From: Terrimicrobiaceae bacterium
Lineage (GTDB): Bacteria; Verrucomicrobiota; Verrucomicrobiia; Chthoniobacterales; Terrimicrobiaceae
NCBI GenBank assembly: GCA_041674265.1
Contig: JBAYWC010000002.1
Location: 8,380-72,379, forward strand
Direction: 5' to 3'
Length of the DNA stretch: 64,000 bases
The translations under genes and the position numbers were made by a program. This document shows positions 7,854 through 53,626 of the stretch, piece after piece; within the stretch, counting starts at the first letter, position 1; each line of letters starts with the position of its first letter. The notes beneath the pieces were generated by a model that made no database searches, had not been told where the DNA came from, and saw nothing but the letters and a program-made list of their open reading frames with translations.

Positions 7854-7928
7854 AAGAGTTCTGGAGCATAGAAACCCCGTAACGGCCCCAGGCCCGTCCA
7901 GCAGTCTGTATTCGCCAAATGGTGCCCG

Positions 7929-7949
7929 CCGGAGGCGGAAAGCCTCCGG
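7929..7949 (-). terminator. hairpin downstream of the bS22-like gene (weak terminator candidate)
   Basis: CCGGAGGC-GGAAA-GCCTCCGG, 8-bp GC stem about 20 nt after the stop. Only a short T-run follows on the minus strand. Confidence 0.3.
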
Positions 7950-7970
7950 GGCGTCGTCAAACCAAGCCGG

Positions 7971-8075
7971 TTACGACTTGTAGCGCAACCGCTTCTTGTG
8001 GCGGTTTTCTTTCATGCGCTTGCGTCGCTTGTGCTTCGCGATCTTCGATTTTCTTTTCTTCTTTAATGAACCCAT
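7971..8075 (-). CDS. small basic ribosomal protein bS22-like (AURKAIP1/COX24-domain family), 34 aa
   Basis: Hand translation gives MGSLKKKRKSKIAKHKRRKRMKENRHKKRLRYKS. This closely resembles the mycobacterial bS22 pattern [25 protein letters not shown]. It is too short for the supplied ORF track. Confidence 0.65.
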   Translation of the reverse strand: MGSLKKKRKSKIAKHKRRKRMKENRHKKRLRYKS

Positions 8076-8090
8076 GGGATTGCGGGGATG

Positions 8091-8969: not shown

Positions 8970-9098
8970 GCGAGCCGGGCAGTCTAAGCGGAAACCTTCG
9001 TTCTTGGCATGCAAATTCTCGCTTGGGGGTTTGCCTGCAGATGCTCTATCCTTGATTTTTTGCCAGCCTCCATTCCTGTGAACCCCGCCCCGACTCCC

Positions 9099-10169: not shown

Positions 10170-10257
10170 AGTGGCAGCCTCCCGTGCATGGCTTGGCCCT
10201 CGTGGTTACAGGCCCCCGCTTCCTACTTCAGCCTTCAGCCTTCGACCTTTTCTTCCC

Positions 10258-11634
10258 ATGAGCGCGCTGCACGTCGATCTCGATCTGGTCAAAAAATACA
10301 ACGTCGCCGGGCCGCGTTACACGAGCTACCCGCCGGCAACGAAGTTCAGCGAAAGCGCCCCGCTGGACGAACTCGGCGCGCGCATCGAAACGAACAACAT
10401 CTCCGCAAGCGATCTCTCGGTCTATTTTCACATCCCGTTTTGCGAGACCCTCTGCTGGTTCTGCGGCTGCACGACCGTCATTACTCTCAACCACGACAAG
10501 GGCGCGGACTACATCGATTATCTCGGACGCGAGGTCGCGAGGATGGCGCCCCGGTTGAATCCCGCGCGCAAGGTCGTCCAGCTCCACTTCGGCGGCGGGT
10601 CGCCGACGTTTTTGCGTCCGGATGAAATCCGGAGGCTCGGCGCGATCATCCACAAACATTTCACCTTTTCGCCGGGAATCGAAGCGAGCGTGGAGGTCGA
10701 CCCGCGCCGGCTCACGCGCGACCATCTGGTCGCCCTGCGCGAGATCGGGTTCAACCGCGCTTCGATGGGCGTGCAGGATTTCAATCCGCAGGTGCAGGAA
10801 GCGATCCATCGGATCCAGCCCCCCGAAATGACCCGCCAGGCGATGGATTGGATGCGCGAACTCGGCTTCGGCTCGATCAACCTCGACCTCATCTACGGGC
10901 TGCCGCACCAGACGCCGGAGTCGTTCGGCGAAACGCTGGACACGGTTCTCGCCATGCAGCCGGACCGCCTCGCCATGTTCAGCTACGCGCACGTTCCCTG
11001 GATCAAACCGGCCCAGAAAATCCTCGAGGCGAAAATCCTGCCCTCGCCGGAGACCAAGTTGCAGGTCCTCAAGCTGGTCATCGAAAAACTGACCGCAGGG
11101 GGCCGCTACGTTTACATCGGCATGGACCATTTCGCGCGGCCCGGCGACGAACTCGCCGTCGCCCAGCGCAACAAGCAGCTCCAGCGGAATTTCCAGGGCT
11201 ACAGCACGCGCTCCGGCTCGGACATCTACGCGTTCGGGATGTCTGCCATCTCGCAAATCCCGGATGCCTACTGGCAGAACGAAAAGGAACTGCCGAAATA
11301 CCAGGGAGCCGTCGATGCCGGGCGGATGCCGTGGCACCGCGCCTATTTCGTGACCGAGGAGGACAAAATCCGGCGCGAAACCATCATGCGCGTGATGTGC
11401 GACCTGTCGCTCGACTTCGCCGCGATGTCGCAAAAGCTGGGCCTCGACTTCGAGGCCCACTTTGCCGCGGAACTCGCCGCGCTTGCGCCGTTCCAAAGCG
11501 ACGGCCTGGTGGAACGCACCCCCGGCGGCTTCGCAATCACCGACAGCGGGCGCCTCTTCATCCGCAACATTGCGATGTGCTTCGACAACACGCTGGCACC
11601 CGCGGGCGAGCGGAGGCACTCGAAGACGGTCTGA
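10258..11634 (+). CDS. hemN: oxygen-independent coproporphyrinogen III oxidase (radical SAM)
   Basis: MSALHVDLDLVKKYNVAGPRYTSYPPA opening and the radical-SAM cluster motif CETLCWFCGC. Confidence 0.9.
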   Translation: MSALHVDLDLVKKYNVAGPRYTSYPPATKFSESAPLDELGARIETNNISASDLSVYFHIPFCETLCWFCGCTTVITLNHDKGADYIDYLGREVARMAPRLNPARKVVQLHFGGGSPTFLRPDEIRRLGAIIHKHFTFSPGIEASVEVDPRRLTRDHLVALREIGFNRASMGVQDFNPQVQEAIHRIQPPEMTRQAMDWMRELGFGSINLDLIYGLPHQTPESFGETLDTVLAMQPDRLAMFSYAHVPWIKPAQKILEAKILPSPETKLQVLKLVIEKLTAGGRYVYIGMDHFARPGDELAVAQRNKQLQRNFQGYSTRSGSDIYAFGMSAISQIPDAYWQNEKELPKYQGAVDAGRMPWHRAYFVTEEDKIRRETIMRVMCDLSLDFAAMSQKLGLDFEAHFAAELAALAPFQSDGLVERTPGGFAITDSGRLFIRNIAMCFDNTLAPAGERRHSKTV

Positions 11635-13040
11635 TGAAATCCGTCGCGATCATCGGCGCGGGCATCACGGGGCTGACCGCGGCATTTTATCTCAAACGCG
11701 CGGGCATCCCTGTCGTGATCTACGAGTCGGGCAGCCGGGTCGGCGGCGCGATCCGGTCTCTCCGGCAGGATGGCTATCTTGCGGAGTTCGGGCCGAACAC
11801 GATTCTGGAAACCTCGCCGAAAATCACGCGCCTCCTCCGCGACGCGGGCCTGGAACCCCGCCGGCTCGATCCCGCCCCGGAGGCGGATGCGCGTTATGTG
11901 GTGAGGGACAAACGCCCGATTGCCATGCCCGGCTCGCCGCTCGGGTTTTTGACGACAAAACTCTTTTCCCTCCAGGCCAAGCTGGCTGTGCTGCGCGAGC
12001 CGTTCGTGCCGCCGCGCCGTGATGGCGTGGAGGAGAGCGTCGCCGAATTTGTCCTGCGACGGTTGGGCCGGGAATTTCTCGCCCATGCGATCGACGCGAT
12101 GGTCGCCGGAGTTTACGCGGGCGACCCCGCTAGGCTGTCCCTCCAGCAGGCCTTCCCAAAACTCGCCGCGATCGAGGCCAAATATGGCTCGCTCATCAAG
12201 GGGCAGATCTTTGGTGCGCGTGAGCGCAGGAGACGCGGCGAGGTCGCCAAGGATCGTGCGCCAAAATTCTCCTTCGACGAGGGACTGCAAGTGCTGCCCG
12301 ACACACTGCTCGCGCACCTCGGCGACGCGGTGCAACTCAACACCCTGGTCACGAAGGCAACCCGGCATTCCGACGGTTGGACGCTTGGCCTCCGGACGAA
12401 TGACAGCGGATCGCGTTCTCATCACAGTGCGGTCATTTATGCGGGCACGGCATACGGCCTCGCGAAGTTGCAGGTCGAACTGATGGCTCCGGCCTCCGGT
12501 TCATCCATCGGAAATCCGCTCGACCTTTCGCCGTTTTCCGAAATCCGTCATCCGCCCGTGGCAAGCGTGGTGCTCGGTTTCCGGCGCGAAGACGTGACGC
12601 ATCCCTGCCAGGGGTTCGGCGCATTGATTCCGAATGTCGAGGGGTTCAGGATTCTCGGCACGATCTTTTCTTCGTCGCTGTTTCCGAACCGTGCGCCGGC
12701 CGGACATCTCACCCTCACCAGCTACATCGGCGGCGAACGACATCCCGGGCTGGCTTCCCTGCCGCCGGACGAACTTTTCGACCTGACCCGGCGGGATTTG
12801 CGCGCGCTGTTCGGGGCGAATGGCAGCCCGACATTCCGGCATTGCGCGTTTTTTCCCAAGGCCATCCCGCAATACAATCTCGGCTACGGGCGCTTCCGGG
12901 AACTGATGGCCGAAATCGAAACAAAAGCGCCGGGCCTGTTTTTTGCCGGACATTACCGCGACGGGATTTCGTTGGGCGATTCCATCGTCTCGGGCTGCAA
13001 CATCGCCCAACGGGTTGGGAAGTCCCTGACCATCGCATGA
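11634..13040 (+). CDS. hemY: protoporphyrinogen oxidase (HemY-type FAD oxidase)
   Basis: MKSVAIIGAGITGLTAAFYL dinucleotide-binding opening. The start overlaps the hemN stop (TGATG). Confidence 0.85.
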   Translation: MKSVAIIGAGITGLTAAFYLKRAGIPVVIYESGSRVGGAIRSLRQDGYLAEFGPNTILETSPKITRLLRDAGLEPRRLDPAPEADARYVVRDKRPIAMPGSPLGFLTTKLFSLQAKLAVLREPFVPPRRDGVEESVAEFVLRRLGREFLAHAIDAMVAGVYAGDPARLSLQQAFPKLAAIEAKYGSLIKGQIFGARERRRRGEVAKDRAPKFSFDEGLQVLPDTLLAHLGDAVQLNTLVTKATRHSDGWTLGLRTNDSGSRSHHSAVIYAGTAYGLAKLQVELMAPASGSSIGNPLDLSPFSEIRHPPVASVVLGFRREDVTHPCQGFGALIPNVEGFRILGTIFSSSLFPNRAPAGHLTLTSYIGGERHPGLASLPPDELFDLTRRDLRALFGANGSPTFRHCAFFPKAIPQYNLGYGRFRELMAEIETKAPGLFFAGHYRDGISLGDSIVSGCNIAQRVGKSLTIA

Positions 13041-13114
13041 TTTCTCCCCCCCACGAAATCCGGGCGACAGGAAGCCGGCAATCCTGTATATCGGGGAACA
13101 AACAGGAACAACCC

Positions 13115-13312
13115 ATGCCCACAACACTCGAAACCATCACACGCGAAGCGCTGGAAGTGCCCCGCCAACAGCAAATCCGGCGCGCACATTATCTACTTTC
13201 GCCCGGCGACGAGCCGGTCGATCTGGAAGTCGAAGCTGCATGGGATACGGAGATCCGCGCCCGGCTGAAAGCCTGCGATGAAGGAAAGCTGGAGACCGTG
13301 CCCTTCGAGTAA
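13115..13312 (+). CDS. addiction-module antitoxin-like ORF (TIGR02574-like), truncated by an in-frame TAA relative to its paralog at 17495
   Basis: 65 aa, about two-thirds identical by hand alignment to the antitoxin at 17495-17734. Homology continues past the stop (see pseudogene 13313-13365). Confidence 0.55.
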   Translation: MPTTLETITREALEVPRQQQIRRAHYLLSPGDEPVDLEVEAAWDTEIRARLKACDEGKLETVPFE

Positions 13313-13365
13313 GTAAAACGGGAGATAGAATCCCGTCTGCGCTAATGCAAACAACCTTTTCTTCC
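13313..13365 (+). pseudogene. remnant of antitoxin C-terminus plus the first ~7 codons of a ParE-like toxin
   Basis: Reading on in frame gives VKREIESRLR*CK, against EVKRDIAARLRECK* in the intact copy. ATGCAAACAACCTTTTCT (MQTTFS) at 13345 matches the ParE start ATGCAAGTAACGTTCTCG (MQVTFS) in the same overlapping register. Similarity then fades. Confidence 0.6.
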
Positions 13366-13421
13366 TCCACATCGGCCTTCGATTCTGGCATGACTCCCCG
13401 CTTTCTGATCTCAAAGTCGAC

Positions 13422-14684
13422 ATGACACCCAAACCTCCAGTTTTGCCTGAGCGCCCCAAGGATCGCTTCGAGGTTTATCGGCTTTTTGACGGGATCTCCA
13501 GTGAGGGAAAAGAGGGGATCGATCAGGGACGAACCCGCACTCCCTTGGTCAAATCTTTTCTCGTCGAGCATGTTTCCTCCACCAGGGGAAGGCAAACCCG
13601 CACTCCCCAAGAAATCTGGTCACGCTTGGGGGGAAGTCCGCACCCGATTGATTCAGACTTTTTTTCCATTCAAGGAACGGTGAGGGATGAATCTGGAACC
13701 CGGCAGACAACCGTTGGCTATTTGGAGCGCTACGACGAACGCTTCTTCGCCTACTACACCACGGAAGTTTCCCAGAGTGCCAAAAAGCGCGTGACAAAGT
13801 GGATCCAGAAATCTCCGGATCTCGATTCCTGCTGGTTCAACAGCGATCTTCTCCAGGTTCTTTGGAACCGGGATGTTTCACGGCGCGGGGACCAGCGATT
13901 CGGCAAGCTGACGTTCAAGCACGAGAGCATTTTTGAGATGCCCGTGAATGCCGAGGATTCGGAAGAGGAACCCGATGAGGACGCCCGGACAGAGGATTCC
14001 GATCTTGAGGAACAAGCCGGACCGGAGAGGAGGAAGGCCCGCTTTGACATGAGCGACCGCATCGGGCGCATCAAGCAGTCGCTGGGCAATCTCCAGGAGC
14101 AGTATCTTCCGCTTTACGCTCTTTATTCGCTCCGCTTTCCCTCACGACTCGGAAGGGGCAGCCACGACCTCTACCAGCATGGTCAGCTCACCAATCGCTC
14201 CGATAGCTTCGAGGACCATCGCGGCACGGCCCTCTATCTCCATCAAGTTTACAAAAATATCCTTGAGAGCACGGAGTCGAAAGCCTGGAGCGATTCGGAA
14301 ACCTCATTGAATGCCGCTACGCGGCCTCACAAAGGCGTGCCGCTGATTGTCCGTTTCGCCGAACCCCTCACCGAGACCACTTTCAAGCAATGGATTTCGC
14401 GCGCCTTCCACAAGAAGAATGTTTTTCGGCTCTGGGGCGAACCCATCTGGATGGGGCCGACGAAGGTTCATGTCTATGGAGCAGACCGACACCTCTGGCA
14501 GCCGCTGAATCTTGAAATCACAGGGGAGGGAATGGTTGCCATCCTCCCGAAAGGAACGTGCGGAAATACCTTTCACCGGCTTGTCACCAACATCCAGCGG
14601 TATGTCTGCCCGAAAGTGGATGCCTGGGTGGGCAGCACTCCGCTCACGGACCTCATGTCACAGGCCACCGGCTCGGAAAATTAA
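13422..14684 (+). CDS. hypothetical protein, island gene 1 (420 aa, no recognised motif; central acidic tract)
   Basis: Long ORF in the island. Contains NAEDSEEEPDEDARTEDSDLEE. Ends 4 nt before the next ORF. Slightly lower GC than the core genes. Confidence 0.7.
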   Translation: MTPKPPVLPERPKDRFEVYRLFDGISSEGKEGIDQGRTRTPLVKSFLVEHVSSTRGRQTRTPQEIWSRLGGSPHPIDSDFFSIQGTVRDESGTRQTTVGYLERYDERFFAYYTTEVSQSAKKRVTKWIQKSPDLDSCWFNSDLLQVLWNRDVSRRGDQRFGKLTFKHESIFEMPVNAEDSEEEPDEDARTEDSDLEEQAGPERRKARFDMSDRIGRIKQSLGNLQEQYLPLYALYSLRFPSRLGRGSHDLYQHGQLTNRSDSFEDHRGTALYLHQVYKNILESTESKAWSDSETSLNAATRPHKGVPLIVRFAEPLTETTFKQWISRAFHKKNVFRLWGEPIWMGPTKVHVYGADRHLWQPLNLEITGEGMVAILPKGTCGNTFHRLVTNIQRYVCPKVDAWVGSTPLTDLMSQATGSEN

Positions 14685-14688
14685 TGCG

Positions 14689-15033
14689 ATGACACCTGCT
14701 GAACTGATCCGCGATCTTTCACTTGAAGTGTCCGCTCAACAGTTGCTCCGTGAAACCACGCAGGGAACCGTCATCTACCTCCCCCGGCAAAAGCAGCAAA
14801 GGATGGAGAAACTCGTCGTCGAGAATATTTTCAAACGCGTCCGGGAAGTTTGGAAGGACAAGCATCCCGACTTGATCCGACTTGAGGGGAGAACCATGAC
14901 GATCAATTTTGAGTCCGACCTCCGCCGTGACGATTTCCTTGACTGGCTTGAGGACGGAGACAAAACGAAATTCTCCGACAAGGCTCCTCCTCCGGAAACC
15001 CCCGAGTTTCCCGGCATGTTCTCCCAATCATGA
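14689..15033 (+). CDS. hypothetical protein, island gene 2 (114 aa)
   Basis: ATG at 14689 (MTPAELIRDLSLEV...). 22 nt upstream of the mod start, same strand. No recognised motif. Confidence 0.55.
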   Translation: MTPAELIRDLSLEVSAQQLLRETTQGTVIYLPRQKQQRMEKLVVENIFKRVREVWKDKHPDLIRLEGRTMTINFESDLRRDDFLDWLEDGDKTKFSDKAPPPETPEFPGMFSQS

Positions 15034-15055
15034 GTCTCGCTCGGAATTCTTTTTC

Positions 15056-17410
15056 ATGCCCACTCTGAACTGGATCGGCAAGGAAGCCGTCGTCAACCAT
15101 CACCACCAGGTCCCGTTTCGTTTGCTCAACGACGTGCCGGATCTTGCATGCGGCGAACCGGGCGCGGGAAACCTCATCGTCGAGGGCGACAACCTCGAAG
15201 CCCTCAAGGCCCTCCTGCCCTACTACGCCGGACAGGTGAAGTGCATCTACATCGACCCGCCTTACAACACGGGCAACGAAGGCTGGGTTTACAATGACAA
15301 CGTCCGCAGCCCGATCATCGGGGAGTGGCTCGGAAAGACCGTCGGCAAGGAGGGCGAAACCCTCGACCGCCACGACCGATGGCTCTGCATGATGTATCCT
15401 CGCTTGGCCCTGCTGCGCGAGTTTCTGCGGGAGGATGGGATTTTGCTGATCACGATTGATGATGCTGAAGTGGAGAGTGCCATAGTTCTCGGAAATGAGA
15501 TTTTCGGCCGCAATAATAACCGAGCGACAATTATTTGGCAGCATAGCGTTCAGCCCAAAGGCTATTCTGGGAAAATTTCAATTCACCACAACTACCTTCT
15601 GGCATTTGCAAAATCTGAAGCGTTCACCTTTCGGGATATTCCACGAAAAGAGGAACACAACGCGAACTACTCCAATCCTGACAATGACCCAAATGGTCCG
15701 TGGCGGTCTGGCGATGTGCGGAATGCACTTTATCGCCCAAACCTCATTTACGACTTAGTCACGCCATCTGGAAAAATCATCAAACCGCCGACAAAAGGCT
15801 GGCGCTGGAGCAAGGAGACGATGACCGAAAGAATTCGGACTGGTGAAATTGTTTTTCGGGCAGATGAAACAAGAATTGTTCGGAAGATTTATCTCAATAA
15901 TCAAGAGGGTCGCGCCCCAGAGTCGATTTGGTTTGGTGAGGACGTTGGAACAACCCGCGATGCGAACCAAGAGCTTAAAGACATATTTACCCACTCCCCG
16001 TTTGATACCCCGAAGCCAACAAGCCTACTTGAACGCATCCTTCAAATTTGCACCAACCCCGGCGACCTGGTATTGGATTCCTTCGCCGGAAGCGGGACGA
16101 CGGGCCATGCGGTATTGAAAATGAACGCCGTAGAAGCGGCGTCCCGCCGCTTGGAATTGGAGGGAAAGACGCAGGATGCGTCTTCTACGGGAAGCGGGAC
16201 GACGGGGCACGCGGTATTGAAAGCGAACGCCGTAGAAGCGGCGTCCCGCCGCTTGGAAAACGAGGGCAAGACGCAGGATGCGTCTTCTACGGTGAACTAT
16301 TTCGACCCGTCTGAATCGGTGGCTCATTTGACCGGGAATCTGCCGCACTGGCGGCAGGATGGGGCGACATATTTTGTGACATTCCGGACAGCGGACTCGA
16401 TGCCGCAGGCCAAACTCAAGCAGTGGTTGGATGAGCGCAATGAGTGGATGGAGGAACATCCGGAACCCCACACATCCGCCGAACGCCAGGAATACACGAA
16501 GCTTTTCCCACAGAGGTTTCAGAAGTGGCTGGATGAGGGATACGGACCGTGCCACCTTGCAAGGCCCGACGTGAAGGCGATTGTCGAAAATGCGTTGAGT
16601 CATTTCGACGGGACCCGTTACCGGCTTGGGGAGTATGTCGTGATGCCGAACCACGTCCATGTGCTGGTGTCGCCGCTGGGCGAGCATGTGCTTTCGGACA
16701 TCCTACAGGCTTTGAAATCTTTCACGGCAAAGGAAATCAACCGTCTCATCGGCGAGACGGGACATTTTTGGCAGAAGGAATCCTTCGATCACATCGTGCG
16801 CAGCCCGGAGCAGATGGAACGGATCAAGGAATACATCCGGGACAATCCAAAAGCAGTAGAAGCGGCGTCCCGCCGCTTTGGAGCAAAGACGCAAGATGCG
16901 TCTTCTACGACTCGGCGTTTCATTCTCGTTGAGATGGAGCCGGAGATTGCGCCGAAGATCACGGCGGAGCGGGTGCGGCGGGTGGCGGAGGGCTACAAGA
17001 ACGCCAAGGGCGAGAAGGTTGCCGGGCTCGGCGGAGGGTTCCGCTATTGCCGTCTCGGCGAGCCGCTTTTCGATGCCGACCGGCAGATCCGTCCGTCCGT
17101 GACATTCGGCGAGTTGGCGCGGCATGTGTATTTCACCGAGACCGGCGAGCCGCTTCCGCGCGAGCGGGTGCCGAATACCCCGCTGCTCGGCGTGTGCCGT
17201 GGCGTGGCGATTTACCTGCTCTACAACGGCATCCTTGGCGACAAGAGCACGAATGGCGGCAACGTGCTGACCCGCGCCGTTCTGTCCAAGCTGCCGAAGT
17301 TCGACGGCCAGAAAGTGATCTATTGCGCGGGCTGCCTGCTCGGGACCGGGCGCCGGAATGCCGCGCGGATCGTGATCCGACAAACCCCCTACGAAATCCG
17401 CACGACATGA
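15056..17410 (+). CDS. mod: Type III-like R-M methyltransferase (Mod, beta-class N6-adenine MTase) carrying an in-frame REP/RAYT insertion
   Basis: MPTLNWIGKE opening, motif IV IYIDPPYNTGNEGW and motif I SFAGSGTTGHAVLKMN. The usual continuation RRFILVEMEP...GLGGGFRYCRLGEP...IRQTPYEI resumes only after an ~780-nt insert. The whole stretch remains one open frame. Confidence 0.85.
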   Translation: MPTLNWIGKEAVVNHHHQVPFRLLNDVPDLACGEPGAGNLIVEGDNLEALKALLPYYAGQVKCIYIDPPYNTGNEGWVYNDNVRSPIIGEWLGKTVGKEGETLDRHDRWLCMMYPRLALLREFLREDGILLITIDDAEVESAIVLGNEIFGRNNNRATIIWQHSVQPKGYSGKISIHHNYLLAFAKSEAFTFRDIPRKEEHNANYSNPDNDPNGPWRSGDVRNALYRPNLIYDLVTPSGKIIKPPTKGWRWSKETMTERIRTGEIVFRADETRIVRKIYLNNQEGRAPESIWFGEDVGTTRDANQELKDIFTHSPFDTPKPTSLLERILQICTNPGDLVLDSFAGSGTTGHAVLKMNAVEAASRRLELEGKTQDASSTGSGTTGHAVLKANAVEAASRRLENEGKTQDASSTVNYFDPSESVAHLTGNLPHWRQDGATYFVTFRTADSMPQAKLKQWLDERNEWMEEHPEPHTSAERQEYTKLFPQRFQKWLDEGYGPCHLARPDVKAIVENALSHFDGTRYRLGEYVVMPNHVHVLVSPLGEHVLSDILQALKSFTAKEINRLIGETGHFWQKESFDHIVRSPEQMERIKEYIRDNPKAVEAASRRFGAKTQDASSTTRRFILVEMEPEIAPKITAERVRRVAEGYKNAKGEKVAGLGGGFRYCRLGEPLFDADRQIRPSVTFGELARHVYFTETGEPLPRERVPNTPLLGVCRGVAIYLLYNGILGDKSTNGGNVLTRAVLSKLPKFDGQKVIYCAGCLLGTGRRNAARIVIRQTPYEIRTT
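16129..16189 (+). repeat. REP doublet 1 (CGTAGAAGCGGCGTCCCGCCGCTT ... AAGACGCAGGATGCGTCTTCTACG)
   Basis: Two inverted hairpin units (AAGCGGCG/CGCCGCTT and AAGACGCA/TGCGTCTT) bracketed by CGTAGAAG/CTTCTACG. Confidence 0.85.
16231..16291 (+). repeat. REP doublet 2
   Basis: Same structure as doublet 1, exactly 102 nt downstream. Confidence 0.85.
16856..16909 (+). repeat. REP doublet 3 (shorter spacer)
   Basis: GTAGAAGCGGCGTCCCGCCGCTTTGGAGCAAAGACGCAAGATGCGTCTTCTAC, directly after the RAYT YIRDNPK motif. Confidence 0.85.
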
Positions 17411-17420
17411 AAACTGGATA

Positions 17421-17470
17421 CGTAGAAGCGGCGTCCCGCCGCTTGCAAAGCGACAAGATGCCGCTTCTAC
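17421..17470 (+). repeat. REP doublet 4 (intergenic, between mod stop and antitoxin start)
   Basis: CGTAGAAGCGGCGTCCCGCCGCTTGCAAAGCGACAAGATGCCGCTTCTAC. The first arm is identical to doublets 1-3; the second arm is a variant. Confidence 0.8.
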
Positions 17471-17494
17471 TTGATAAAACGAAAGGAAAACGCC

Positions 17495-17734
17495 ATGGCA
17501 ACAACACTTGAAGTGATCACGCACGAGGTGCTGGAACTACCCCGCTCCCAGCAAATCCGCCTTGCCCATTATCTTCTCTCGCTGGATGACGATCCGGTGG
17601 ATCCGGAAATCGAAGCCGCGTGGGAGAATGAAATCTGCGCCCGCATGCAAGCGTATCGTGAGGGGCGGCTGGAAACTGTTCCATTTGAAGAGGTGAAACG
17701 GGACATCGCAGCCCGCTTGCGCGAATGCAAGTAA
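17495..17734 (+). CDS. addiction-module antitoxin (TIGR02574-like), partner of ParE
   Basis: MATTLEVITHEVLELPRSQQIRLAHYLLSLDDDPVDPEIEAAWENEI... AGGA lies ~7 nt upstream of the ATG at 17495. Overlaps the toxin start by 10 nt. Confidence 0.8.
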   Translation: MATTLEVITHEVLELPRSQQIRLAHYLLSLDDDPVDPEIEAAWENEICARMQAYREGRLETVPFEEVKRDIAARLRECK

Positions 17735-18012
17735 CGTTCTCGCCTCAAGCCCGCGAAGAAATCGCGGAAGCTGCGCTCTACTACGAGGGACAGCAAAGTG
17801 GGCTGGGTTCGGAATACACGGAAGAGGTGTATGCGTTCGTGCAGATGGTGACCATCGCTCCGGAGCAGCCGAGACTCAGGCGTCGTGGTTATCGAAGAGT
17901 GAATCTGGATCGTTTTCCTTACTACATCGCCTATTCGATTGAAACCGGAGTCATCTTGATTTTGGCTATCGGCCATGCTGCCCGAAAGCCCGAATACTGG
18001 ATAAAGCCATGA
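17725..18012 (+). CDS. parE: ParE/RelE-family type II toxin
   Basis: 95 aa. MQVTFSPQAREEIAEAALYYEGQ...RRVNLDRFPYYIAYSIETGVILILAIGHAARKPEYW is typical of the plasmid-stabilisation ParE/RelE fold. Its stop overlaps the res start (ATGA). Confidence 0.8.
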   Translation: MQVTFSPQAREEIAEAALYYEGQQSGLGSEYTEEVYAFVQMVTIAPEQPRLRRRGYRRVNLDRFPYYIAYSIETGVILILAIGHAARKPEYWIKP

Positions 18013-20702
18013 TCCAACTGAAGGACTACCAACAGCGGGTGCTGGAAAGCCTGCGGGCTTTTCTGAAACGCACCGCGCAAACGCGACATCCGGCGGAAGC
18101 CTTCCACGAGGTCACAGAAAAAGTCTATGGCGAGCCGCTGACCTACATTCCGGCCACGGCGGCGGGCCTGCCATCGGACATGCCGTATGTGTGCCTGCGC
18201 GTCCCAACGGGCGGAGGCAAGACGCTTCTGGCCTGCCATGCAGTGGGCATCGCGCAGACCGAGCTTCTGCGGGCCGAACACAGCGTGGTTCTCTGGCTGG
18301 TGCCGAACAATACGATCCTTGAGCAGACCGCCGACGCATTGCGCGATGTCCAGCATCCCTACCGCCGGGCGCTGGAACTCGAATGCGCCGGACCGGTCGA
18401 GGTGCTGCGGATTGATGAGGCGCTCAACCTGACCCGCGCCCGTGTCGAAGGCGCGACTGTGGTTATCGTGGCGACGATGCAAAGCTTCCGTGTCGAGGAC
18501 ACGACCGGACGCAAGGTCTATGCGCCGAGCAGCCCGTTTCAGGATCATTTTCTCAACCTGGCCCCGCAGGACAGCGCGCGGCTTTTCGAGGGGCCGGACA
18601 AGAAGCCGATCCCGAGTCTGGTGAACATGCTGCGGCTTCGACGGCCGATCGTGATCGTGGACGAGGCGCACAACGCCCGCACCGACCTTTCCTTTGCCAC
18701 GCTGGGAAATCTCCTGCCCTCGTGCATCATCGAATTCACCGCTACGCCCGCCACAACCAAGCAACCGTCGAATGTGCTGCACCGGGTATCCGCAGCCGAA
18801 CTCAAAGCCGCCGACATGGTGAAGCTGCCGCTGCGGGTCATCGCACGGGATCCGAGCCAGCGGGAGCAACTGCTCAGCGAGGCGCTTTCCCTGCGGGCCG
18901 ATCTGGAAAAACTCGCGGCCATCGAGGGCCAGCACACCGGCGAATATCTCCGGCCGATTCTGCTCATTCAGGCGGTTCGGGTGGATGACTGCAAGGACCT
19001 CAAAGCCCGGCTGGTCGCCGAGTTCGGCCTGAACGAGGCGGAGATCAAAATCTCCGTGGGCAGCTTGGATGAACTCGAAGCGATCAAGGACATCCGCGCG
19101 ACGAACTGCCCGGTGCGGATCATCATCACCGTGCAGAAACTTCGCGAGGGCTGGGATTGTCCGTTCGCGTATGTGCTGTGCAGCCTGCGCGAGACGCGGA
19201 GCGCCACCGCCATCGAGCAGATTGTCGGCCGCATACTCCGGCTTCCCGGTGCCACGCCGAAACAACATCCGGATCTCAACTGCGCGTATGCTTTTTCCGT
19301 CTCCGATTCGATGCCGGAGGTTCTGAACGAGCTGCGGCAGGCATTGGAGAGCAACGGGTTCACTCCCGCCGAGGCCGAGCGCATCGTGCTGCCGGGCGGA
19401 CAATCCACACTCGGGCTCGGGGTTCAGCCGCAGACGGTCACTGTCAATCCTGTCACGGAACTCGATGCCGCCGTGGCCCAGATCCAGAGCGGAGCACTCG
19501 CCGGAAAAGTGCGTATCAATGTGGAGAAAGGCGAGATCACGGTCATTGCCCCCCTGACTCCGGAAGAATCCGAAATGGCCGAAAGCGTGGTAAAAACGCC
19601 CGGGGCCAAAACCAAGATCCGGCAGGCCGTGCAAAAAGTGATCGAGGCCGAGAAGGCGATGGGCGGCACCGGCGCGGCCCGCGCCGCGAGCGGATACGAG
19701 CAGCAACTGGATTTCATCGTGCCGCTCCTCTGCGTGGACGAGGACGGCGAGTTGTTGGAATTTGAGAGCACGTTCCTCCTCGAACATCCGTGGAAACTGA
19801 GCGCGAAGGACGCCGCGCAGCCCGCGCACTACAATCCGCTTCAACGTCCGACCGGCGTGCTCGGGGTGATCGATGTCGGGGCCAAGGGCACGGTCGAGGG
19901 AGTGACCGTCGCCCGCGATGAGGCCGAGGATTTTATCGCCACGCTCCACCAGCAGACGCTCCAGCTCGGCGGTGACAGCCATTGGTCGCTCGAAGCCCTG
20001 GTGGCATGGATCGACGTCCGCATTCCGCACGAAGACATCCCCATGGGAGAATCCGCCGGGTTCCTGCGAAAAGTCGTTCGCGGCCTCATGGCACAACACG
20101 GATTGCAGGATGTGGACACCATCGCCCTGGACCGCTTCCGCCTGCGTGATGAGGTCGAGGATCTGATCCAGGCCCATCGCATCCACGAGAGGGAGGCTGC
20201 CTTCAAGAATTGGCTCCTTCCGGAATCCGCTCTGTCAGTGAGCGACGCGCGCGCGCTGAACTTCAAGACAAGCAGCTACGAACCGAGCTGGCTTTACGAG
20301 GGTGGACATCAGTTCAAGAAACACTACTTCGGTCCGGAGCCCGGCGAACTCCGCGAGAAGAAATCCGACGGCAAGCTGACGGAAGAGTTCCAATGCGCCT
20401 GCTACCTCGATGCGCTTCCCGCCGTGCTCTGGTGGGTGCGCAACCTGTCCCAGAAGAGCAGTTCATTCCGCCTTCAAACTTCCAAGCAGTGGTTCTTCCC
20501 CGATTTCATCTGCCAGCTTACCGATGGCCGGATTATGGCGGTGGAATACAAAGGAAAACACCTGTGGAATGATGCCGAAGAAAAGCGCGCAGTCGGGGCC
20601 GTATGGCAATCCCGGAGCAAGGGACAGTGCGTGTTTGTGATGCCAACAGATGGCGATTTTGGAGTCATCGGGAAAACCTGTCTTTCGGGAGCGAGGGAAT
20701 GA
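18009..20702 (+). CDS. res: Type III-like restriction enzyme Res subunit (SF2 helicase plus C-terminal PD-(D/E)xK nuclease)
   Basis: Walker A VPTGGGKTLLA, DEAH box IVIVDEAHNAR, and the C-terminal FFPDFICQLTDGRIMAVEYKGKHL nuclease-like motif. 897 aa. Confidence 0.85.
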   Translation: MIQLKDYQQRVLESLRAFLKRTAQTRHPAEAFHEVTEKVYGEPLTYIPATAAGLPSDMPYVCLRVPTGGGKTLLACHAVGIAQTELLRAEHSVVLWLVPNNTILEQTADALRDVQHPYRRALELECAGPVEVLRIDEALNLTRARVEGATVVIVATMQSFRVEDTTGRKVYAPSSPFQDHFLNLAPQDSARLFEGPDKKPIPSLVNMLRLRRPIVIVDEAHNARTDLSFATLGNLLPSCIIEFTATPATTKQPSNVLHRVSAAELKAADMVKLPLRVIARDPSQREQLLSEALSLRADLEKLAAIEGQHTGEYLRPILLIQAVRVDDCKDLKARLVAEFGLNEAEIKISVGSLDELEAIKDIRATNCPVRIIITVQKLREGWDCPFAYVLCSLRETRSATAIEQIVGRILRLPGATPKQHPDLNCAYAFSVSDSMPEVLNELRQALESNGFTPAEAERIVLPGGQSTLGLGVQPQTVTVNPVTELDAAVAQIQSGALAGKVRINVEKGEITVIAPLTPEESEMAESVVKTPGAKTKIRQAVQKVIEAEKAMGGTGAARAASGYEQQLDFIVPLLCVDEDGELLEFESTFLLEHPWKLSAKDAAQPAHYNPLQRPTGVLGVIDVGAKGTVEGVTVARDEAEDFIATLHQQTLQLGGDSHWSLEALVAWIDVRIPHEDIPMGESAGFLRKVVRGLMAQHGLQDVDTIALDRFRLRDEVEDLIQAHRIHEREAAFKNWLLPESALSVSDARALNFKTSSYEPSWLYEGGHQFKKHYFGPEPGELREKKSDGKLTEEFQCACYLDALPAVLWWVRNLSQKSSSFRLQTSKQWFFPDFICQLTDGRIMAVEYKGKHLWNDAEEKRAVGAVWQSRSKGQCVFVMPTDGDFGVIGKTCLSGARE

Positions 20703-21736
20703 GCTTCCAGCACAAACCGGGCGTTTTGTTGATGAATCTCGGATCGCCGGATTCGACCTCCGTGTCCGACGTGAGGGAATACCTGCGCGAGTTTCTCATG
20801 GACCCGCGCGTGCTCGACTCCCCGTGGCTTGTCCGCTGGTGCGTGGTCCATTTCGCGATCCTGCCGACCCGCCCCGCGCAATCGGCGGAGGCCTACGAAA
20901 AAATCTGGACGAAGGGCGGCTCGCCGCTCGTCGCCACAAGCCGCAACGTGCAGCGCGAGATGCAGCGCCGGTTCGGGGACGGCGCCGTCATCGAACTCGC
21001 GATGCGTTACCGGAACCCCGGGATCGGGTCCGCCATCCGGCATCTGCGCGAACAGGGAGTCACGGACCTTTTGGTGTTCCCGCTTTTTCCCCACTTTGCG
21101 ATGTCGAGTTTTGAAACGGCGGTTGTCCGCGCGCGGGAAGTCGCCGCCCGGCTGGCGCCGGAGATGAAGCTGAAAATCGCGGAGCCGTATTACGACGACC
21201 CCGGCTACATCGCGGCGCTCGCCGCCAGCGCGGAGGATTTCCTCGATGCGGGCTACGATCATCTGCTGTTCAGTTTCCACGGTCTGCCCGAACGTCACCT
21301 CCGCAAGGCCAACCCGGGCCATTGCCTGGCCGCCCCCAACTGCTGCGAAACCCCCGGCCCCGCCCTCCACACCTGCTACCGCGCCCAATGCTTCGCCACC
21401 GTCCGCGCCTTTGTCGAAGCAACCGGCGTCCCCACAAACAAGCACTCGGTCTCCTTCCAGTCGCGGCTCGGACGCGATCCCTGGCTCAAGCCCTACACCG
21501 ATTTCGAGTTCACCCGTCTTGCCGGAACCGGCGTCAAAAAACTTCTGGTCATCTGCCCGGCCTTCGTCTCCGACTGCCTCGAAACCGTCGAGGAAATCGC
21601 CATCCGCGGACGCGCAACCTTCCTCGAAGCCGGCGGAACCGAATTCGCCCTCACCCCGTGCATGAACGAGCATCCACGATGGCTCGAAGCGCTGGAAAAA
21701 ATCCTCCGCGCGGAATTGCCGGCGAACCAGGACTAG
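20699..21736 (+). CDS. hemH: ferrochelatase
   Basis: MSFQHKPGVLLMNLGSPDSTSVSDVREYLREFLMDPRVLD opening. The ATG overlaps the res stop. Confidence 0.9.
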   Translation: MSFQHKPGVLLMNLGSPDSTSVSDVREYLREFLMDPRVLDSPWLVRWCVVHFAILPTRPAQSAEAYEKIWTKGGSPLVATSRNVQREMQRRFGDGAVIELAMRYRNPGIGSAIRHLREQGVTDLLVFPLFPHFAMSSFETAVVRAREVAARLAPEMKLKIAEPYYDDPGYIAALAASAEDFLDAGYDHLLFSFHGLPERHLRKANPGHCLAAPNCCETPGPALHTCYRAQCFATVRAFVEATGVPTNKHSVSFQSRLGRDPWLKPYTDFEFTRLAGTGVKKLLVICPAFVSDCLETVEEIAIRGRATFLEAGGTEFALTPCMNEHPRWLEALEKILRAELPANQD

Positions 21737-22025
21737 GCCCTGCCCGACTCCAATGGGACAGGAATGTGGCGGAACACGGGCGTGTTTCGCAAACATGGTT
21801 TTCGCTCTTAGCCCGGAACACCCGCGAGAGGGCGCTTGTCGTGATATGGGCGAGTCGGATTGGTTTTTCTCCGTTCCTTCGCGCCTCCGCGGCTTGGCGG
21901 GAGATACTCTGGTTGATTCGATGGCGGGCAGGGTGCCCGCGCTCCGTTTACCCTGCGCCTCTGCGCGAGATCGCCTGTGTTTCGGACGCGTGACAACCGG
22001 CGCGGGATCTGCGAGAGAAGGCGGC

Positions 22026-24674
22026 ATGCCGGACGATGCTGAATCACGACGGATGGCGGCGCGGGATGCGGGTCATGAACCTTGGGGGCTCTGGGGATCC
22101 TATCTGAGCGACCGGCAGTGGGGCACGGTGCGCGAAGATTATTCCGCCGACGGGGATGCATGGACATTTTTCCCGCATGAACATGCCCGATCTCGTGTTT
22201 ACCGTTGGGGCGAGGATGGACTCTTGGGAATCAGCGATTCCGATGGCAGATTATGCTTTGCTCCTGCCTTTTGGAACGGCAAGGACCGGATGCTCAAGGA
22301 ACGTCCGTTCGGGCTCTCGAACCCGCAGGGCAATCATGGCGAGGATCTCAAGGACTATTTTTATCACCTCGACAATACACCCGCGCACAGCTTCATGCGG
22401 GGGCTCTACAAATACCCGCAGGCCGCTTTTCCGTATGACCACCTGGTCGAAGAAAATGGCCGCCGCCCGCGCAGCGAACCGGAATACGAGCTTGTGGACA
22501 CCGGAGTTTTCAACGACGGCCGCTATTTTGATATCTTCGTGGAATACGCGAAAGAGACCGCCGAGGACATCGGCATCCGGATCCGCGCCATCAACCGCGG
22601 GCCCGATCCCGCGCCGCTGACCGTTCTCCCGACACTCTGGTTCCGCAATACCTGGTCGTGGGGCCAGGCGGAGGCCACGAAGCCGGAGATGCATCTTGCC
22701 GCGCATGGGACTGCGGTCATCGCTCATCCGTGGGGGTTGCCCGAGTACCACCTCTATTGCGAGGCTGCCGGCGAATTCCTTTTCACGGATAATGAGACAA
22801 ATGCCGGCCGGCTTTTCGGAGCCAAAAATCCCGCACCTTATTTGAAGGACGGTTTTCACGATTTTCTCATCGGCGGAAAAGCCGATGCGGTGAATCCTTC
22901 GCATTGCGGGACCAAGGCGGCGCCGGTTTATCGGCGGACGCTTGCAGCCGGCGAGGAATGGACGCTCCGCCTGCGTTTGTGCCGTCCGCCGAAGCCGGAG
23001 GCATTCGGCCAGGCCTTTGAGGAGTTGTTCCAGCGCAGGGAACGGGAGTGCGCGGAGTTTTACGAGCGCCGCTCTCCCGGCATGCCCGCGGAACTCGCGC
23101 TCGTCCATCGCAGCGCTCTGGCCGGCCTCCTCTGGTGCAAAAAGTTCTATTACTACCCGGTCATTCAATGGCTCCAGGGCGACCCCACCATGCCGCCCCC
23201 GCCGCCGGGGCGGTGGCACGGACGGAACAGTTTCTGGAAGGAGCTGCACGCGCACGATGTCATTTCGATGCCCGATTCGTGGGAGTATCCGTATTTCTGC
23301 GCGTGGGACCTGATGTTCCAGTCGGTCGCGTTCACGGTGGCCGATCCCGCCACCGCAAAGAAGCAGAGCATGCTTCTGCGCGGCGAGCGCTACACGTCCC
23401 CCAGCGCGCAACAGCCCGCCTACGAATGGGCGCTCTCGGATGCGAACCCCCCGATCGGAGGCTGGGCGAGCTGGCGGATTTATTCCATCGAGCGCGGGAT
23501 GACCGGAAAAGGGGATGTCTTCTACCTCAAAAAGGCCTTCAACAAATTGCTGCTCGGGTATTCCTGGTGGGCGAACCGAGTGGACCAGACCGGCGACAAT
23601 GTCTTCGAGGGCGGGTTCCTCGGCCTCGACAACATCGGGGTCTTCGACCGGAGATACCCTCTCCCCGATGGGAGCAAAATCGAGCAAAGCGACGGCACCG
23701 CGTGGATGGCGATGTTCTGCCTCAACATGCTCAACATCGCGATCGAACTGGCGAAAACCGAGCCGGAATACGAGGACATCGCCGACAAATTTCTCAACGA
23801 CTTCATCTATCTTGCCGCCGCGGTCAACGCCGTGGGTTCGGGAGGCTTTGCGCTCTGGGACGATGACGACGGATTTTATTATGATGTGCTCAAGCGACCG
23901 GATGGTTCGAATGCCTATTTGAAGACCCGCTCGATCGCGGGCCTGACCCCCCTGTTTGCGGTGGAGAGCTTTGACTCGGCGACCGCACAGCAGTTTCCCC
24001 TCCTCTGCAAGCGGATCGAATGGTTTGCCAAGCACCGCCCGCACCTGCTCGAACAGCTTCATCATATCGGTCGGCAAGTGGATGGCAGGCTGCTCGTCTC
24101 GCTGGTTCCTCCGGAGCGCCTGCGCCGGCTCTGTGAACGGCTCTTCGACGAGGAGGAATTTCTCTCGCCTCATGGCATCCGCGCCCTCTCGCGCGTTTAC
24201 AAAGACCAGCCCTACACGTTCACCGAGGGGGAGGAAACAGAGACCCTCTGCTACACCGCCGCAGACAGCCCGGTGGCGATGTTCGGCGGAAATTCCAACT
24301 GGCGCGGCCCGGTCTGGATGCCGATGAATTACCTCCTCATCGAAGCCCTCCAAAAATTCGCGTTTTATTTCGGCGATACGTTCGAAGTCGAATTTCCCAG
24401 CGGCAGCGGCATCGAGATGAACCTCTGGGACATCACCATCGAACTCGAACGCCGGCTCGTCGGAATCTTCGCGCGGGGCGCCGACGGACGCCGCCCGTTC
24501 AACGGCGGCGTGGACCTCTTCCAAAACGACCCCCACTGGCGCGACCTCCTCCTCTTCAACGAATACTTCAACGGGGACAACGGCGCCGGTGTTGGAGCCA
24601 GCCACCAGACCGGCTGGACCGCTCTCGTCGCCAAGATGGCCCGCCAAATTCACACGTTCGACAAATCGATTTAG
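22026..24674 (+). CDS. GH63-like (MGH1/YgjK-type) glycoside hydrolase
   Basis: ~880 aa. WGLWGSYLSDRQWGTVREDYSADGDAWTFFPHEHARSRVYRWGEDG matches my recollection of this family. Start set at ATG 22026 rather than the upstream ORF extension. Confidence 0.6.
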   Translation: MPDDAESRRMAARDAGHEPWGLWGSYLSDRQWGTVREDYSADGDAWTFFPHEHARSRVYRWGEDGLLGISDSDGRLCFAPAFWNGKDRMLKERPFGLSNPQGNHGEDLKDYFYHLDNTPAHSFMRGLYKYPQAAFPYDHLVEENGRRPRSEPEYELVDTGVFNDGRYFDIFVEYAKETAEDIGIRIRAINRGPDPAPLTVLPTLWFRNTWSWGQAEATKPEMHLAAHGTAVIAHPWGLPEYHLYCEAAGEFLFTDNETNAGRLFGAKNPAPYLKDGFHDFLIGGKADAVNPSHCGTKAAPVYRRTLAAGEEWTLRLRLCRPPKPEAFGQAFEELFQRRERECAEFYERRSPGMPAELALVHRSALAGLLWCKKFYYYPVIQWLQGDPTMPPPPPGRWHGRNSFWKELHAHDVISMPDSWEYPYFCAWDLMFQSVAFTVADPATAKKQSMLLRGERYTSPSAQQPAYEWALSDANPPIGGWASWRIYSIERGMTGKGDVFYLKKAFNKLLLGYSWWANRVDQTGDNVFEGGFLGLDNIGVFDRRYPLPDGSKIEQSDGTAWMAMFCLNMLNIAIELAKTEPEYEDIADKFLNDFIYLAAAVNAVGSGGFALWDDDDGFYYDVLKRPDGSNAYLKTRSIAGLTPLFAVESFDSATAQQFPLLCKRIEWFAKHRPHLLEQLHHIGRQVDGRLLVSLVPPERLRRLCERLFDEEEFLSPHGIRALSRVYKDQPYTFTEGEETETLCYTAADSPVAMFGGNSNWRGPVWMPMNYLLIEALQKFAFYFGDTFEVEFPSGSGIEMNLWDITIELERRLVGIFARGADGRRPFNGGVDLFQNDPHWRDLLLFNEYFNGDNGAGVGASHQTGWTALVAKMARQIHTFDKSI

Positions 24675-50587: not shown

Positions 50588-50743
50588 GTCCTGCCGGATT
50601 GTTGCGCATGGGCAAGATGCCCATGCCACAGGAGTTGGCCGGTGGTTCACTCCGGAAAAAAAGGCTCGGCAATACCGTTTCATCCGGGGATTCTTGGAAG
50701 GTCATCCATTTTTGTGCGAGCAATAATCTCGTGAAATCCCCGG

Positions 50744-52572: not shown

Positions 52573-52576
52573 GCGG

Positions 52577-53545: not shown

Positions 53546-53626
53546 GCGACGGAGAATAGGGTGCGCCGGGCGGACGACAAAAGACTTTTGATCAGAAGAT
53601 CCGCAGGCCGCTTGGTCGGAGTCTCT

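Follow-up and report, generated by a model that had tools for sequence, protein, structure and literature searches.

Defence and mobile genes between hemY and hemH of a Terrimicrobiaceae heme operon: a probable stack of successive insertions

The heme operon and the island between hemY and hemH

We examined a 64-kb stretch of DNA from a Terrimicrobiaceae bacterium (the window) in which an island of toxin-antitoxin (TA), restriction-modification (R-M) and transposon-derived genes lies between hemY and hemH, the ferrochelatase gene and displaced final gene of the heme operon. Comparison with homologous loci (labelled L001 and so on) suggests that the operon was once contiguous and that the island grew by stepwise insertion. 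As the original prediction had stated, hemE, hemN and hemY are contiguous, with the hemY start overlapping the hemN stop, and hemH lies about 7.7 kb further downstream; coordinates and Pfam matches agree on this arrangement (Table 1). Every island gene is on the + strand, co-directional with the heme operon. At the right-hand border the res open reading frame (ORF) and the hemH ATG share an ATGA (20699-20702), an overlap that had been noted before and is evident both in the ORF map and in the sequence itself.

The island had been described as packed, with gaps of 4-22 nt or overlapping codons. Most junctions conform to this description (4 nt, 22 nt or overlaps), but three spacers do not: 74 nt between hemY and the first antitoxin gene (AT1), 109 nt between AT1 and the gene for a 420-aa protein, and 84 nt between mod and the second antitoxin gene (AT2). 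Parts of the island are indeed lower in GC content than the flanks, with values of 0.47-0.58 across 13.0-16.7 kb compared to 0.63-0.64 for hemE, hemN and hemY; the 3' part of mod and res itself have values like those of the flanks (0.62-0.65). The reported absence of an integrase, a recombinase and flanking repeats stood in part. A Pfam domain search detected no integrase domain in any island ORF, and alignment to insert-free junctions showed no long flanking repeat (>30 bp) at the island borders, only an ATGA at both outer borders. On the other hand, mod contains a transposase domain, and the island has internal direct repeats, 13047-13361 being a 72-85% copy of 17385-17741 (TA leader, antitoxin and 5' end of parE). 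A tRNA scan placed no tRNA near the borders (the nearest is at 28879), and no Rfam family was found in the scanned region. The marks of an integrase-type genomic island, namely an integrase or recombinase, a tRNA or att target and flanking direct repeats, were therefore not found here.

Table 1. Features of the heme operon and of the island in the window. TRD, target-recognition domain; REP, repetitive extragenic palindrome; RAYT, REP-associated tyrosine transposase.
Feature	Position	Strand	Evidence and remarks
hemE	9009-10169	+	ORF; Pfam URO-D 1e-112
hemN	10171-11634	+	Pfam Radical_SAM and HemN_C
hemY	11631-13040	+	Pfam Amino_oxidase 4e-60
Island between hemY and hemH	13041-20698	+	7.7 kb
Resident TA leader	13041-13114	+	Aligns with hemY-antitoxin spacers of L001, L002, L103, L104 and with mod-antitoxin spacer of L096
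AT1, antitoxin remnant	13115-13312	+	Pfam PF09720 1e-06; 65 aa, 79 aa in intact copies
ParE1 remnant	13345-13355	+	About the first four toxin codons, ATGCAAACAAC; aligns with ParE2 start ATGCAAGTAAC
Defence cassette (MJECL33-partner-Mod-antitoxin-ParE-Res)	13356-20668	+	blastn against L096, L093, L088, 84-89% nt identity
Cassette leader	13356-13421	+	Conserved in L096, L093, L088 despite differing upstream contexts
MJECL33-family gene	13422-14684	+	420 aa; Pfam PF25924 via homologues
Partner-gene remnant	14689-15033	+	114 aa; residues 1-9 fused to ~246-350 of the 350-aa partner (protein alignment)
Type III mod	15056-17410	+	784-aa ORF; PADLOC MTase_III PDLC03644 2.5e-186; Pfam N6_N4_Mtase 2e-35 and Y1_Tnp
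Mod TRD	15470-16006	+	33-35% aa identity to L096/L093, flanking Mod parts 91-96%; GC 0.47
Tandem duplication, 102 nt	16088-16291	+	Repeat family D2; copies 92% identical; in frame
REP units	16130-16190, 16232-16292, 16856-16909, 17422-17471	+	Repeat search
REP-REP-RAYT-REP insert	16141-16912	+	772 nt in place of a 79-nt variable mod loop, net +693 nt (231 codons); blastn against L096, L093
RAYT (Y1 HUH transposase) domain	16292-16855	+	188 codons; Pfam Y1_Tnp 7.6e-09; HVH motif and C-terminal Tyr intact
Fourth REP	17422-17471	+	In TA2 leader; absent in L096
AT2 (embedded TA pair, TA2)	17495-17734	+	Pfam PF09720 4e-12; TIGR02574 1e-09
ParE2 (embedded TA pair, TA2)	17725-18012	+	Pfam ParE_toxin 4e-11
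Type III res	18009-20702	+	897 aa, full length; PADLOC REase_III PDLC03650 1e-127, residues 1-879 over profile 1-876/898; Pfam ResIII
hemH (ferrochelatase)	20699-21736	+	ORF and translation; homologues at 80-83% identity in L001-L009, L106

Related loci and the layers of the island

A scan for HemH in GTDB species genomes and JGI metagenomes yielded 160 loci, mostly from Verrucomicrobiota, all of which were then searched by tblastn with every gene of the region; 112 hold hemY and hemH in order. The closest relatives by HemH belong to Chthoniobacterales/Terrimicrobiaceae, at 80-83% identity, with L106 the closest (83%); an exact-protein look-up of the window HemY matched no record. The hemY-hemH gap is below 150 nt in 97 of the 112 loci and 150-500 nt in five. 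Seven loci carry an antitoxin and ParE insert of ~610-720 nt, two loci from other phyla have hemB at this position (L074 8940-9923 and L076 8979-9956), and one has a single giant gene for an LTD/CotH surface protein of 2589 aa (L049 2143-9912). None of the 112 has mod, res or the 420-aa gene between hemY and hemH. Where junctions were read directly, L106 included, the hemY stop and the hemH start share an ATGA, and the order hemE-hemN-hemY-hemH was seen across Verrucomicrobiota and in other phyla (~100 related loci). Because hemY and hemH are adjacent in 97 of the 112 loci and none of them carries the R-M genes, the island is secondary and a contiguous, translationally coupled hemE-hemN-hemY-hemH operon is, as judged from gene order in relatives, the ancestral state. 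The original prediction had recommended exactly this synteny comparison, and its proposal of defence or selfish genes inserted into a formerly contiguous operon is borne out both by the contiguous relatives and by the recurrence of the same cassette, with the same ends, at the unrelated loci L096, L093 and L088.

The leftmost layer of the island is the remnant of a TA module. Its leader may hold a TA promoter or operator, and repeat D14 ties 13047-13073 to 17385-17411 in the repeat search. Alignment to AT2 and to the antitoxins of L001 and L002 showed that a GAG-to-TAA change removes the last ~14 codons of AT1, and ParE homology ends where cassette homology begins. An antitoxin and ParE lie between hemY and hemH in L001, L002, L103, L104/L105, L110, L112 and L113, and ParE is directly upstream of hemH in L100. 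In L001, L002, L103 and L104 the pair is complete, and hemH begins at a new start that extends its N terminus and overlaps the ParE stop (ATGA or GTGA). By this alignment-based comparison, the left-hand remnant is an older, separate insertion common to several Chthoniobacterales relatives.

The second and largest layer is the defence cassette. Homology to L096, L093 and L088 starts at exactly 13356 in all three, and the DNA upstream of this point is unrelated, both mutually and to the window; on the right, homology stops at 20668 in L096 and L093 and at 20670 in L095. Since the homology ends coincide in unrelated contexts, we regard 13356-20668 as a mobile cassette with defined ends, and its conserved leader presumably holds the cassette's own promoter. 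L096, a 9.2-kb metagenomic contig, encodes MJECL33 (420 aa), partner (350 aa), Mod (558 aa), antitoxin (77 aa), ParE (95 aa) and Res (896 aa), followed by LpqE/SCO1/cytochrome c genes and not by hemH. L093 has MJECL33-partner-Mod-Res without a TA pair, L095 has Mod and Res only (88% Res identity), and L088 holds MJECL33, partner and the start of mod. In L093 and L095 mod passes directly into res, with an ATGA overlap of stop and start, whereas in the window and L096 a co-directional TA pair that overlaps res stands between them. Five further co-directional small genes, including one for an AAA_25 (RepA-like) ATPase, lie upstream of the TA-less cassette in L093 (2219-5723) and could belong, together with the cassette, to a larger mobile element.

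In the window, the left end of the cassette abuts codon 4 of ParE1 with ~6 nt of microhomology. Its right end falls ~8-12 codons short of the native res stop, and the last 34 nt of the res ORF (20669-20702, 11 codons plus stop) are not cassette-derived: they differ from L096, L093 and L095 and match L004, a locus described below. This tail of 30 nt runs into the TGA that overlaps the hemH ATG. A derivation of the tail from the end of hemY or from a ParE-hemH linker was considered, but the similarity is too weak to claim. Campbell-type homologous recombination between the two TA copies was likewise rejected, as the order stub-MJECL33...mod-TA2-res does not fit a single crossover and the copies are only 72% identical.

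The embedded pair, TA2, sits precisely where mod ends and res begins. Its two genes overlap by 10 nt and are predicted from sequence to form a type II TA module; the ParE2 stop restores the ATGA overlap with res. The TA2 leader, a homologue of the one between hemY and AT1, provides mod with its final codons (EIRTT-stop, as compared with EIKVS-stop in the TA-less L093). Compared with the pair that L096 carries at this position, AT2 and ParE2 reach only 56% and 49% aa identity, although identity is 94-96% for the genes on either side. Their identity to the TA at the hemY-hemH site of L104 is 81% and 78%, and TA2 is 93% identical to part of the one in L100; the L096 pair, in turn, most resembles those in L002 and L103. 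The alleles are mosaic, the L100 ParE being part window type and part L001 type. The assumption that TA2 is simply the cassette's original TA is weakened by the 49-56% identity to the L096 pair, and either allele replacement or independent insertion may account for it. With no TA in L093 and a different allele in L096, the TA appears from these alignments to be an optional part of the cassette. Across the loci examined (2.2 Mb), every copy found of this TA family was at one of two kinds of overlapping stop/start junction, hemY-hemH or mod-res; at each of them the ParE stop overlaps the downstream start and a family leader of ~50-70 nt is conserved.

The third layer is a REP/RAYT element within mod. 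The insert is stop-free in the mod frame and lies just after Mod motif I, where the loop that it replaces encodes 5-29 unrelated residues in L096, L093 and L095; REP/RAYT sequence is absent from the Mod genes of these three loci. The RAYT has the signature of a RAYT-type Y1 HUH transposase, that is, an HUH motif and a catalytic Tyr. Its GTG at 16292 aligns with Met1 of stand-alone homologues, and HVHVL and EYIRDNP are present; NCBIfam REP_Tyr_transpos matched at 5e-16 with 58.8 bits, under the model's cut-off of 80 bits. The REP units start with GTAG, form a double hairpin inside an outer stem, and fold at -18 to -20 kcal/mol (z -4 to -5.8). The four REP matches in the 64 kb, where 0.03 are expected, all lie inside the island, and the RAYT is flanked by two units on one side and one on the other. 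Each copy of the 102-nt tandem duplication consists of 41 nt of mod motif I and one REP unit, so that GSGTTGHAVLK...AVEAASRRLE.EGKTQDASST is translated twice; the Mod encoded here would therefore carry the SAM-binding motif I twice. The fourth REP must be older than the split between the window and L004 lineages because it is common to both, L004 8940-9023 matching window 17431-17514 at 92%.

A full-library search returned 10,974 RAYT homologues, and in about half of the best 150 the domain lies mid-way in a long host protein, although this share comes from cluster representatives, which may over-sample long fusions. The hosts include Type I HsdR, PglX-like methyltransferases, a Mur ligase and a DinG-like helicase, and in the host proteins that were read, translated REPs ('VEAASRRL...RQDAAST') lie in frame around the RAYT. 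Such in-frame embedding was seen among P0303, P0304, P0306, P0309, P0312 and P0314; at the site of the REP-RAYT-REP of P0306, P0314 has a single REP, also in frame. This pattern looks like a read-through-compatible REP/RAYT element. In-frame intragenic GTAG REPs have already been described, Opitutus terrae included (PMC3733652), and in-frame carriage of a whole REP-RAYT-REP seems a natural extension of them. At another junction of the same operon, L016 has a RAYT-like ORF between hemN and hemY (7912-8448).

An independent witness to the right-hand part of the island is L004 (= L115), a Terrimicrobiaceae metagenome-assembled genome (MAG). It shares the fourth REP and the TA2 leader with the window at 92%, and it retains 86 codons from the 3' end of res, the non-cassette tail included, together with the ATGA joint to hemH (82% over 1262 nt). 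Window positions 17515-20441 are missing, and AT2 codon 7 is fused in frame to Res codon 812, giving AT2(1-7)::Res(812-897). Because an independent MAG shares it, the res-hemH joint is, by this alignment, real and older than the split of the two lineages. Upstream of hemH, L004 has a divergent xseA, and hemY was not found within 9 kb. The breakpoint that parts hemH from the heme operon (L004 8760-9285) lies inside a REP unit next to xseA, and regions of the window from 49773-54593 are inverted a few kb upstream in L004; together, the breakpoint and the inversion suggest a REP-associated rearrangement.

Coding capacity of the cassette

Mod retains the IDPPY and FAGSGTT (FxGxG) motifs when aligned to the Mods of L096, L093 and L095 (558-569 aa), and Res carries a C-terminal PDF...VEYK motif and is 94% identical (aa) to P0121. 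Both therefore have the sequence features of Type III enzymes, with the fold of Mod broken by an insert of ~257 residues after motif I. The low identity of the TRD, set between well-conserved Mod parts, implies by alignment a replaced allele, and with it a recognition sequence different from those of the L096 and L093 cassettes. A PADLOC search had been proposed for the island. PADLOC v2 matched the Type III Mod and Res at full length and no other defence model in the window; DrmD-like proteins and PglXI/PglZ/BrxL neighbours were matched elsewhere (L081, L090, L085).

We calculated pairwise dN/dS against L096 and L093, at dS of 0.3-0.6. The values were 0.065-0.071 for MJECL33, 0.11-0.13 and 0.058-0.079 for the N- and C-terminal parts of Mod, and 0.054-0.076 for Res, which indicates from codon comparison that the three proteins were under purifying selection for most of their history, although such pairwise values are blind to recent inactivation. 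Because of this long purifying selection, we consider that MJECL33, Mod and Res probably still form a Type III R-M system with an altered specificity domain.

The first gene of the cassette encodes a protein with 584 homologues. All 120 of those listed (54-94% identity, full length) carry the PF25924 annotation; the local Pfam copy gave no direct match, so family membership rests on the homologues and not on a direct score against the profile. MJECL33 matched no NCBIfam model and has no functional annotation in the source names, neither MJECL33 nor its partner matched a PADLOC v2 model, and a literature search for the name 'MJECL33' found no paper. Its AlphaFold model (pLDDT 80.5) consists of repeated alpha/beta units, for which Foldseek returned only weakly TBP-like folds. 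Profile searches of PDB sequences with MJECL33 and the partner gave no meaningful match, and Foldseek against PDB gave nothing at E <= 1e-3 for either; the PDB searches thus yielded no solved relative, only hints at the level of the fold.

The second gene, reduced to 114 codons in the window, is a deletion derivative. Comparison by blastn with L088 and L096 identified an in-frame deletion of 708 nt, removing residues 10-245 (236 codons) with 4 nt of microhomology. The model of the full-length partner is of high confidence (pLDDT 92.6), and its weak top Foldseek matches are mostly PD-(D/E)xK nucleases (YaeQ, cap-snatching endonucleases, Can2 and BspD6I). The full-length protein also has the motif PD73...E88-A-K90. 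On the strength of this model, the full-length partner is predicted to be a PD-(D/E)xK nuclease. The deletion takes out the predicted nuclease core, and the nuclease function has presumably been lost in the window.

MJECL33 and its partner recur as a pair directly upstream of N6/N4 methyltransferases. They were found in the Type III R-M loci L093 and L096, in loci with a DrmD-like SNF2 helicase and Type III genes (L081 and L090; DrmD 1e-203), and in a BREX-3-like locus, L085, with the order BrxC, pair, PglXI, PglZ, BrxL. L087 is also among the loci that carry the conserved pair. The two genes are a candidate accessory module of methylation-based defence, absent from PADLOC v2.

Proposed history and comparison with known systems

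We consider it very likely that the island arose by successive co-directional insertions into the hemY-hemH junction of an ancestrally contiguous operon. As comparison with relatives shows, an antitoxin/ParE module with a leader of ~70 nt first entered right after the hemY stop. The 7.3-kb cassette then landed inside the resident ParE, with deletion of all but about four ParE codons, and the orphaned antitoxin AT1 acquired a stop codon afterwards. At the right end, Res lost its last ~8-12 codons and came to read 30 nt of local sequence up to the TGA overlapping the hemH ATG. In a third step, a GTAG-type REP/RAYT element invaded: REP-REP-RAYT-REP entered a variable surface loop of Mod without breaking the frame, a single REP entered the TA leader, and the partner gene lost 236 codons in frame. 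Such an insert might have been tolerated because all genes are co-directional and there is no terminator-like site beyond shuffle expectation between hemY and hemH. With the frame preserved by every later indel past the cassette leader, transcription and translation could have continued into hemH. Transcription of hemH would probably start from promoters in one or both of the island leaders, that of the cassette and that of TA2, with or without additional read-through from the heme promoter.

The arrangement in L004 bears on this last point. There, hemH must, as read from the sequence, be transcribed from the ~240 nt of REP/TA leader or from within the res remnant, which makes it probable that promoters inside the island contribute to hemH expression in the window as well. 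There is no intergenic space ahead of hemH, and a dependence of hemH on transcription through the island is plausible. Furthermore, the reading frame was kept by each of the four indels that lie past the cassette leader, three of them in the window (-708, +693 net and +102) and the fourth being the deletion in L004; the probability of this under neutrality is ~0.01-0.04. This fits selection against polarity on hemH; for the indels in mod, it equally fits selection on Mod itself.

Several observations weigh against this history or limit its detail. Consensus scans for sigma-70 promoters and for terminators (8000-22500) gave results at or below shuffled expectation, and because no signal rose above background, the route of hemH expression is one that we infer. 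An SD-like (Shine-Dalgarno) GGGAG lies 7 nt upstream of the hemH ATG, and since hemH thus has its own such site, obligatory translational coupling of res and hemH is not required. The comparison reaches relatives at 80-83% HemH identity, with no same-species genome among them, and the HemH tree is star-like (79-83% identity), too unresolved to date the insertion or to place the TA events in sequence. L001 has the TA and its nearest neighbour L009 (89% identity) does not, so that more than one number and order of gains and losses would fit. The left cassette junction at 13356 was seen in this window alone. Lastly, besides the blindness of dN/dS noted above, the net insert of 231 codons (~257 inserted residues) may affect the activity of Mod.

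This last point leads to a possible, though on balance unlikely, alternative, namely that the R-M system is non-functional and that the DNA persists as dead cargo since its removal would cut hemH from its promoter and from coupled translation. The partner has lost its nuclease core, the large insert in Mod lies beside the SAM-binding motif, the four in-frame indels fit selection against polarity on hemH, and L004 has retained just a leader and a fused ORF ending at the hemH ATG. By contrast, Res is full length, 94% identical to intact homologues and has a dN/dS of 0.054, and MJECL33 and the ends of Mod have values of 0.06-0.13; the window lineage has no nonsynonymous excess, save modestly in the N-terminal part of Mod. 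In addition, the insert occupies a loop that is already variable in length among functional-looking Mods, and in-frame REP and REP-RAYT inserts in otherwise intact host genes are common in the family (PMC3733652). A bolder proposal, to which we give little credence, is that the island is anchored by operon capture: it would be the sole transcriptional and translational path into hemH, so that only deletions that keep frame and promoter survive, as in L004, and the TA family would be specialised for ATGA junctions, a niche that is undescribed for TA modules.

We regard it as highly improbable that the unknown pair, Mod, TA, Res and RAYT cooperate as one new composite system. MJECL33-partner-Mod is a recurrent triad, and L096, like the window, has a TA pair that separates mod from res. 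However, the TA is absent from L093 and L095, its alleles differ (49-56% aa) between flanking genes that are 94% identical, the RAYT/REP is a promiscuous element missing from the Mods of L096, L093 and L095, the partner is deleted in the window, and L095 makes do with Mod and Res alone (Res 88% identical). The suggestion in the original prediction that the composite is a single, previously unrecognised architecture is not supported: the elements are nested and separable, the TA is optional, the 114-aa ORF is a deletion remnant and the left-hand TA is older.

An assembly chimera, in which the repeated TA or REP sequences led to heme-operon DNA being merged with an R-M locus from elsewhere, is extremely improbable. 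Two TA copies and four REP copies could mislead an assembler, and the junction at 13356 is without a second witness. However, the TA copies, at 72% identity, are too divergent for k-mer collapse, the right junction including the fourth REP occurs independently in L004, the left junction is in unique sequence with ~6 nt of microhomology only, and the side from hemY to AT1 is orthologous to relatives. Next to no weight can be given to the view that the island was always at this locus and that contiguous relatives lost it by clean deletion, for although L004 shows that large island deletions with hemH kept do occur and the res-hemH joint is old (~82% nt identity between the two lineages), hemY and hemH overlap at ATGA throughout the phylum sample and in other phyla, the cassette has identical ends at unrelated loci, and it interrupts a ParE whose intact orthologues hold the same site in relatives.

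Insertion of R-M genes into operons has precedents. R-M complexes that move as units into operon-like clusters, often without an integrase, have been documented by Kobayashi and co-workers (PMC2993543, PMC2853133). Like them, the island has no linked integrase, was revealed as an insertion in a conserved cluster by genome comparison, and shows an allelic swap of the specificity domain and local rearrangement. Unlike them, it has no target duplication of >30 bp, only the ATGA at both borders, its target was a pre-existing TA toxin gene within an operon, and its cassette has two extra conserved genes and an embedded TA. As in the Type III R-M systems EcoP15I and EcoP1I, the cassette encodes a beta-class N6_N4 Mod with DPPY, TRD and FxGxG, and an SF2-helicase Res with a C-terminal D...EYK nuclease motif, both with full-length PADLOC matches. 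It departs from the canonical two-gene Type III arrangement in that MJECL33 and the predicted PD-(D/E)xK partner precede Mod in the window, L093 and L096 (not in L095), and in that the window Mod is interrupted in frame by REP/RAYT and a TA pair parts mod from res.

The TA modules resemble type II systems of the ParE/RelE superfamily with a PF09720 (TIGR02574) antitoxin, in which a small antitoxin gene overlaps the gene for a ParE-like toxin, of 95 aa here, and they share with type II modules a patchy distribution of mosaic alleles and erosion to an orphan, truncated antitoxin. In the 2.2 Mb covered, this family differs from other type II modules in occurring only at two kinds of overlapping stop/start junction, which may reflect targeting or a survival filter. 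Like REPtrons and Rickettsia palindromic elements (Di Nocera et al., 2013; PMC3733652), the window has GTAG palindromes flanking a Y1 HUH transposase, and, as with the intragenic REPs of Opitutus terrae and Rickettsia (PMC3733652), its REP units are translated in frame within a host gene. It differs from the elements in that report in that a whole REP-RAYT-REP lies in frame in a host gene, as in many database homologues, and in its double hairpin with an outer stem.

Collectively, the island is the outcome of a familiar type of event: separable elements, partly decayed, accumulated one upon another over time and do not amount to a single new system. It is an example of mobile defence and addiction genes tolerated inside a biosynthetic operon, the steps of which (TA, R-M cassette, REP/RAYT and decay) can be reconstructed from relatives. 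It also raises the hypothesis that an essential downstream gene, here hemH, may come to depend on promoters and frames provided by selfish DNA, a dependence that would in turn stabilise that DNA. New here are the particulars: a hotspot inside an operon, where a stop and a start codon overlap, an R-M cassette inside a resident toxin gene, the indication from L004 that hemH can live on island-derived expression signals, and an uncharacterised accessory gene pair. As in known defence islands and hotspots, R-M, TA and transposon genes are stacked at one site and the content varies between relatives; here, by contrast, the hotspot is an overlapping junction inside one biosynthetic operon, rather than a tRNA gene or a gap between operons, and the cargo is entirely co-directional.

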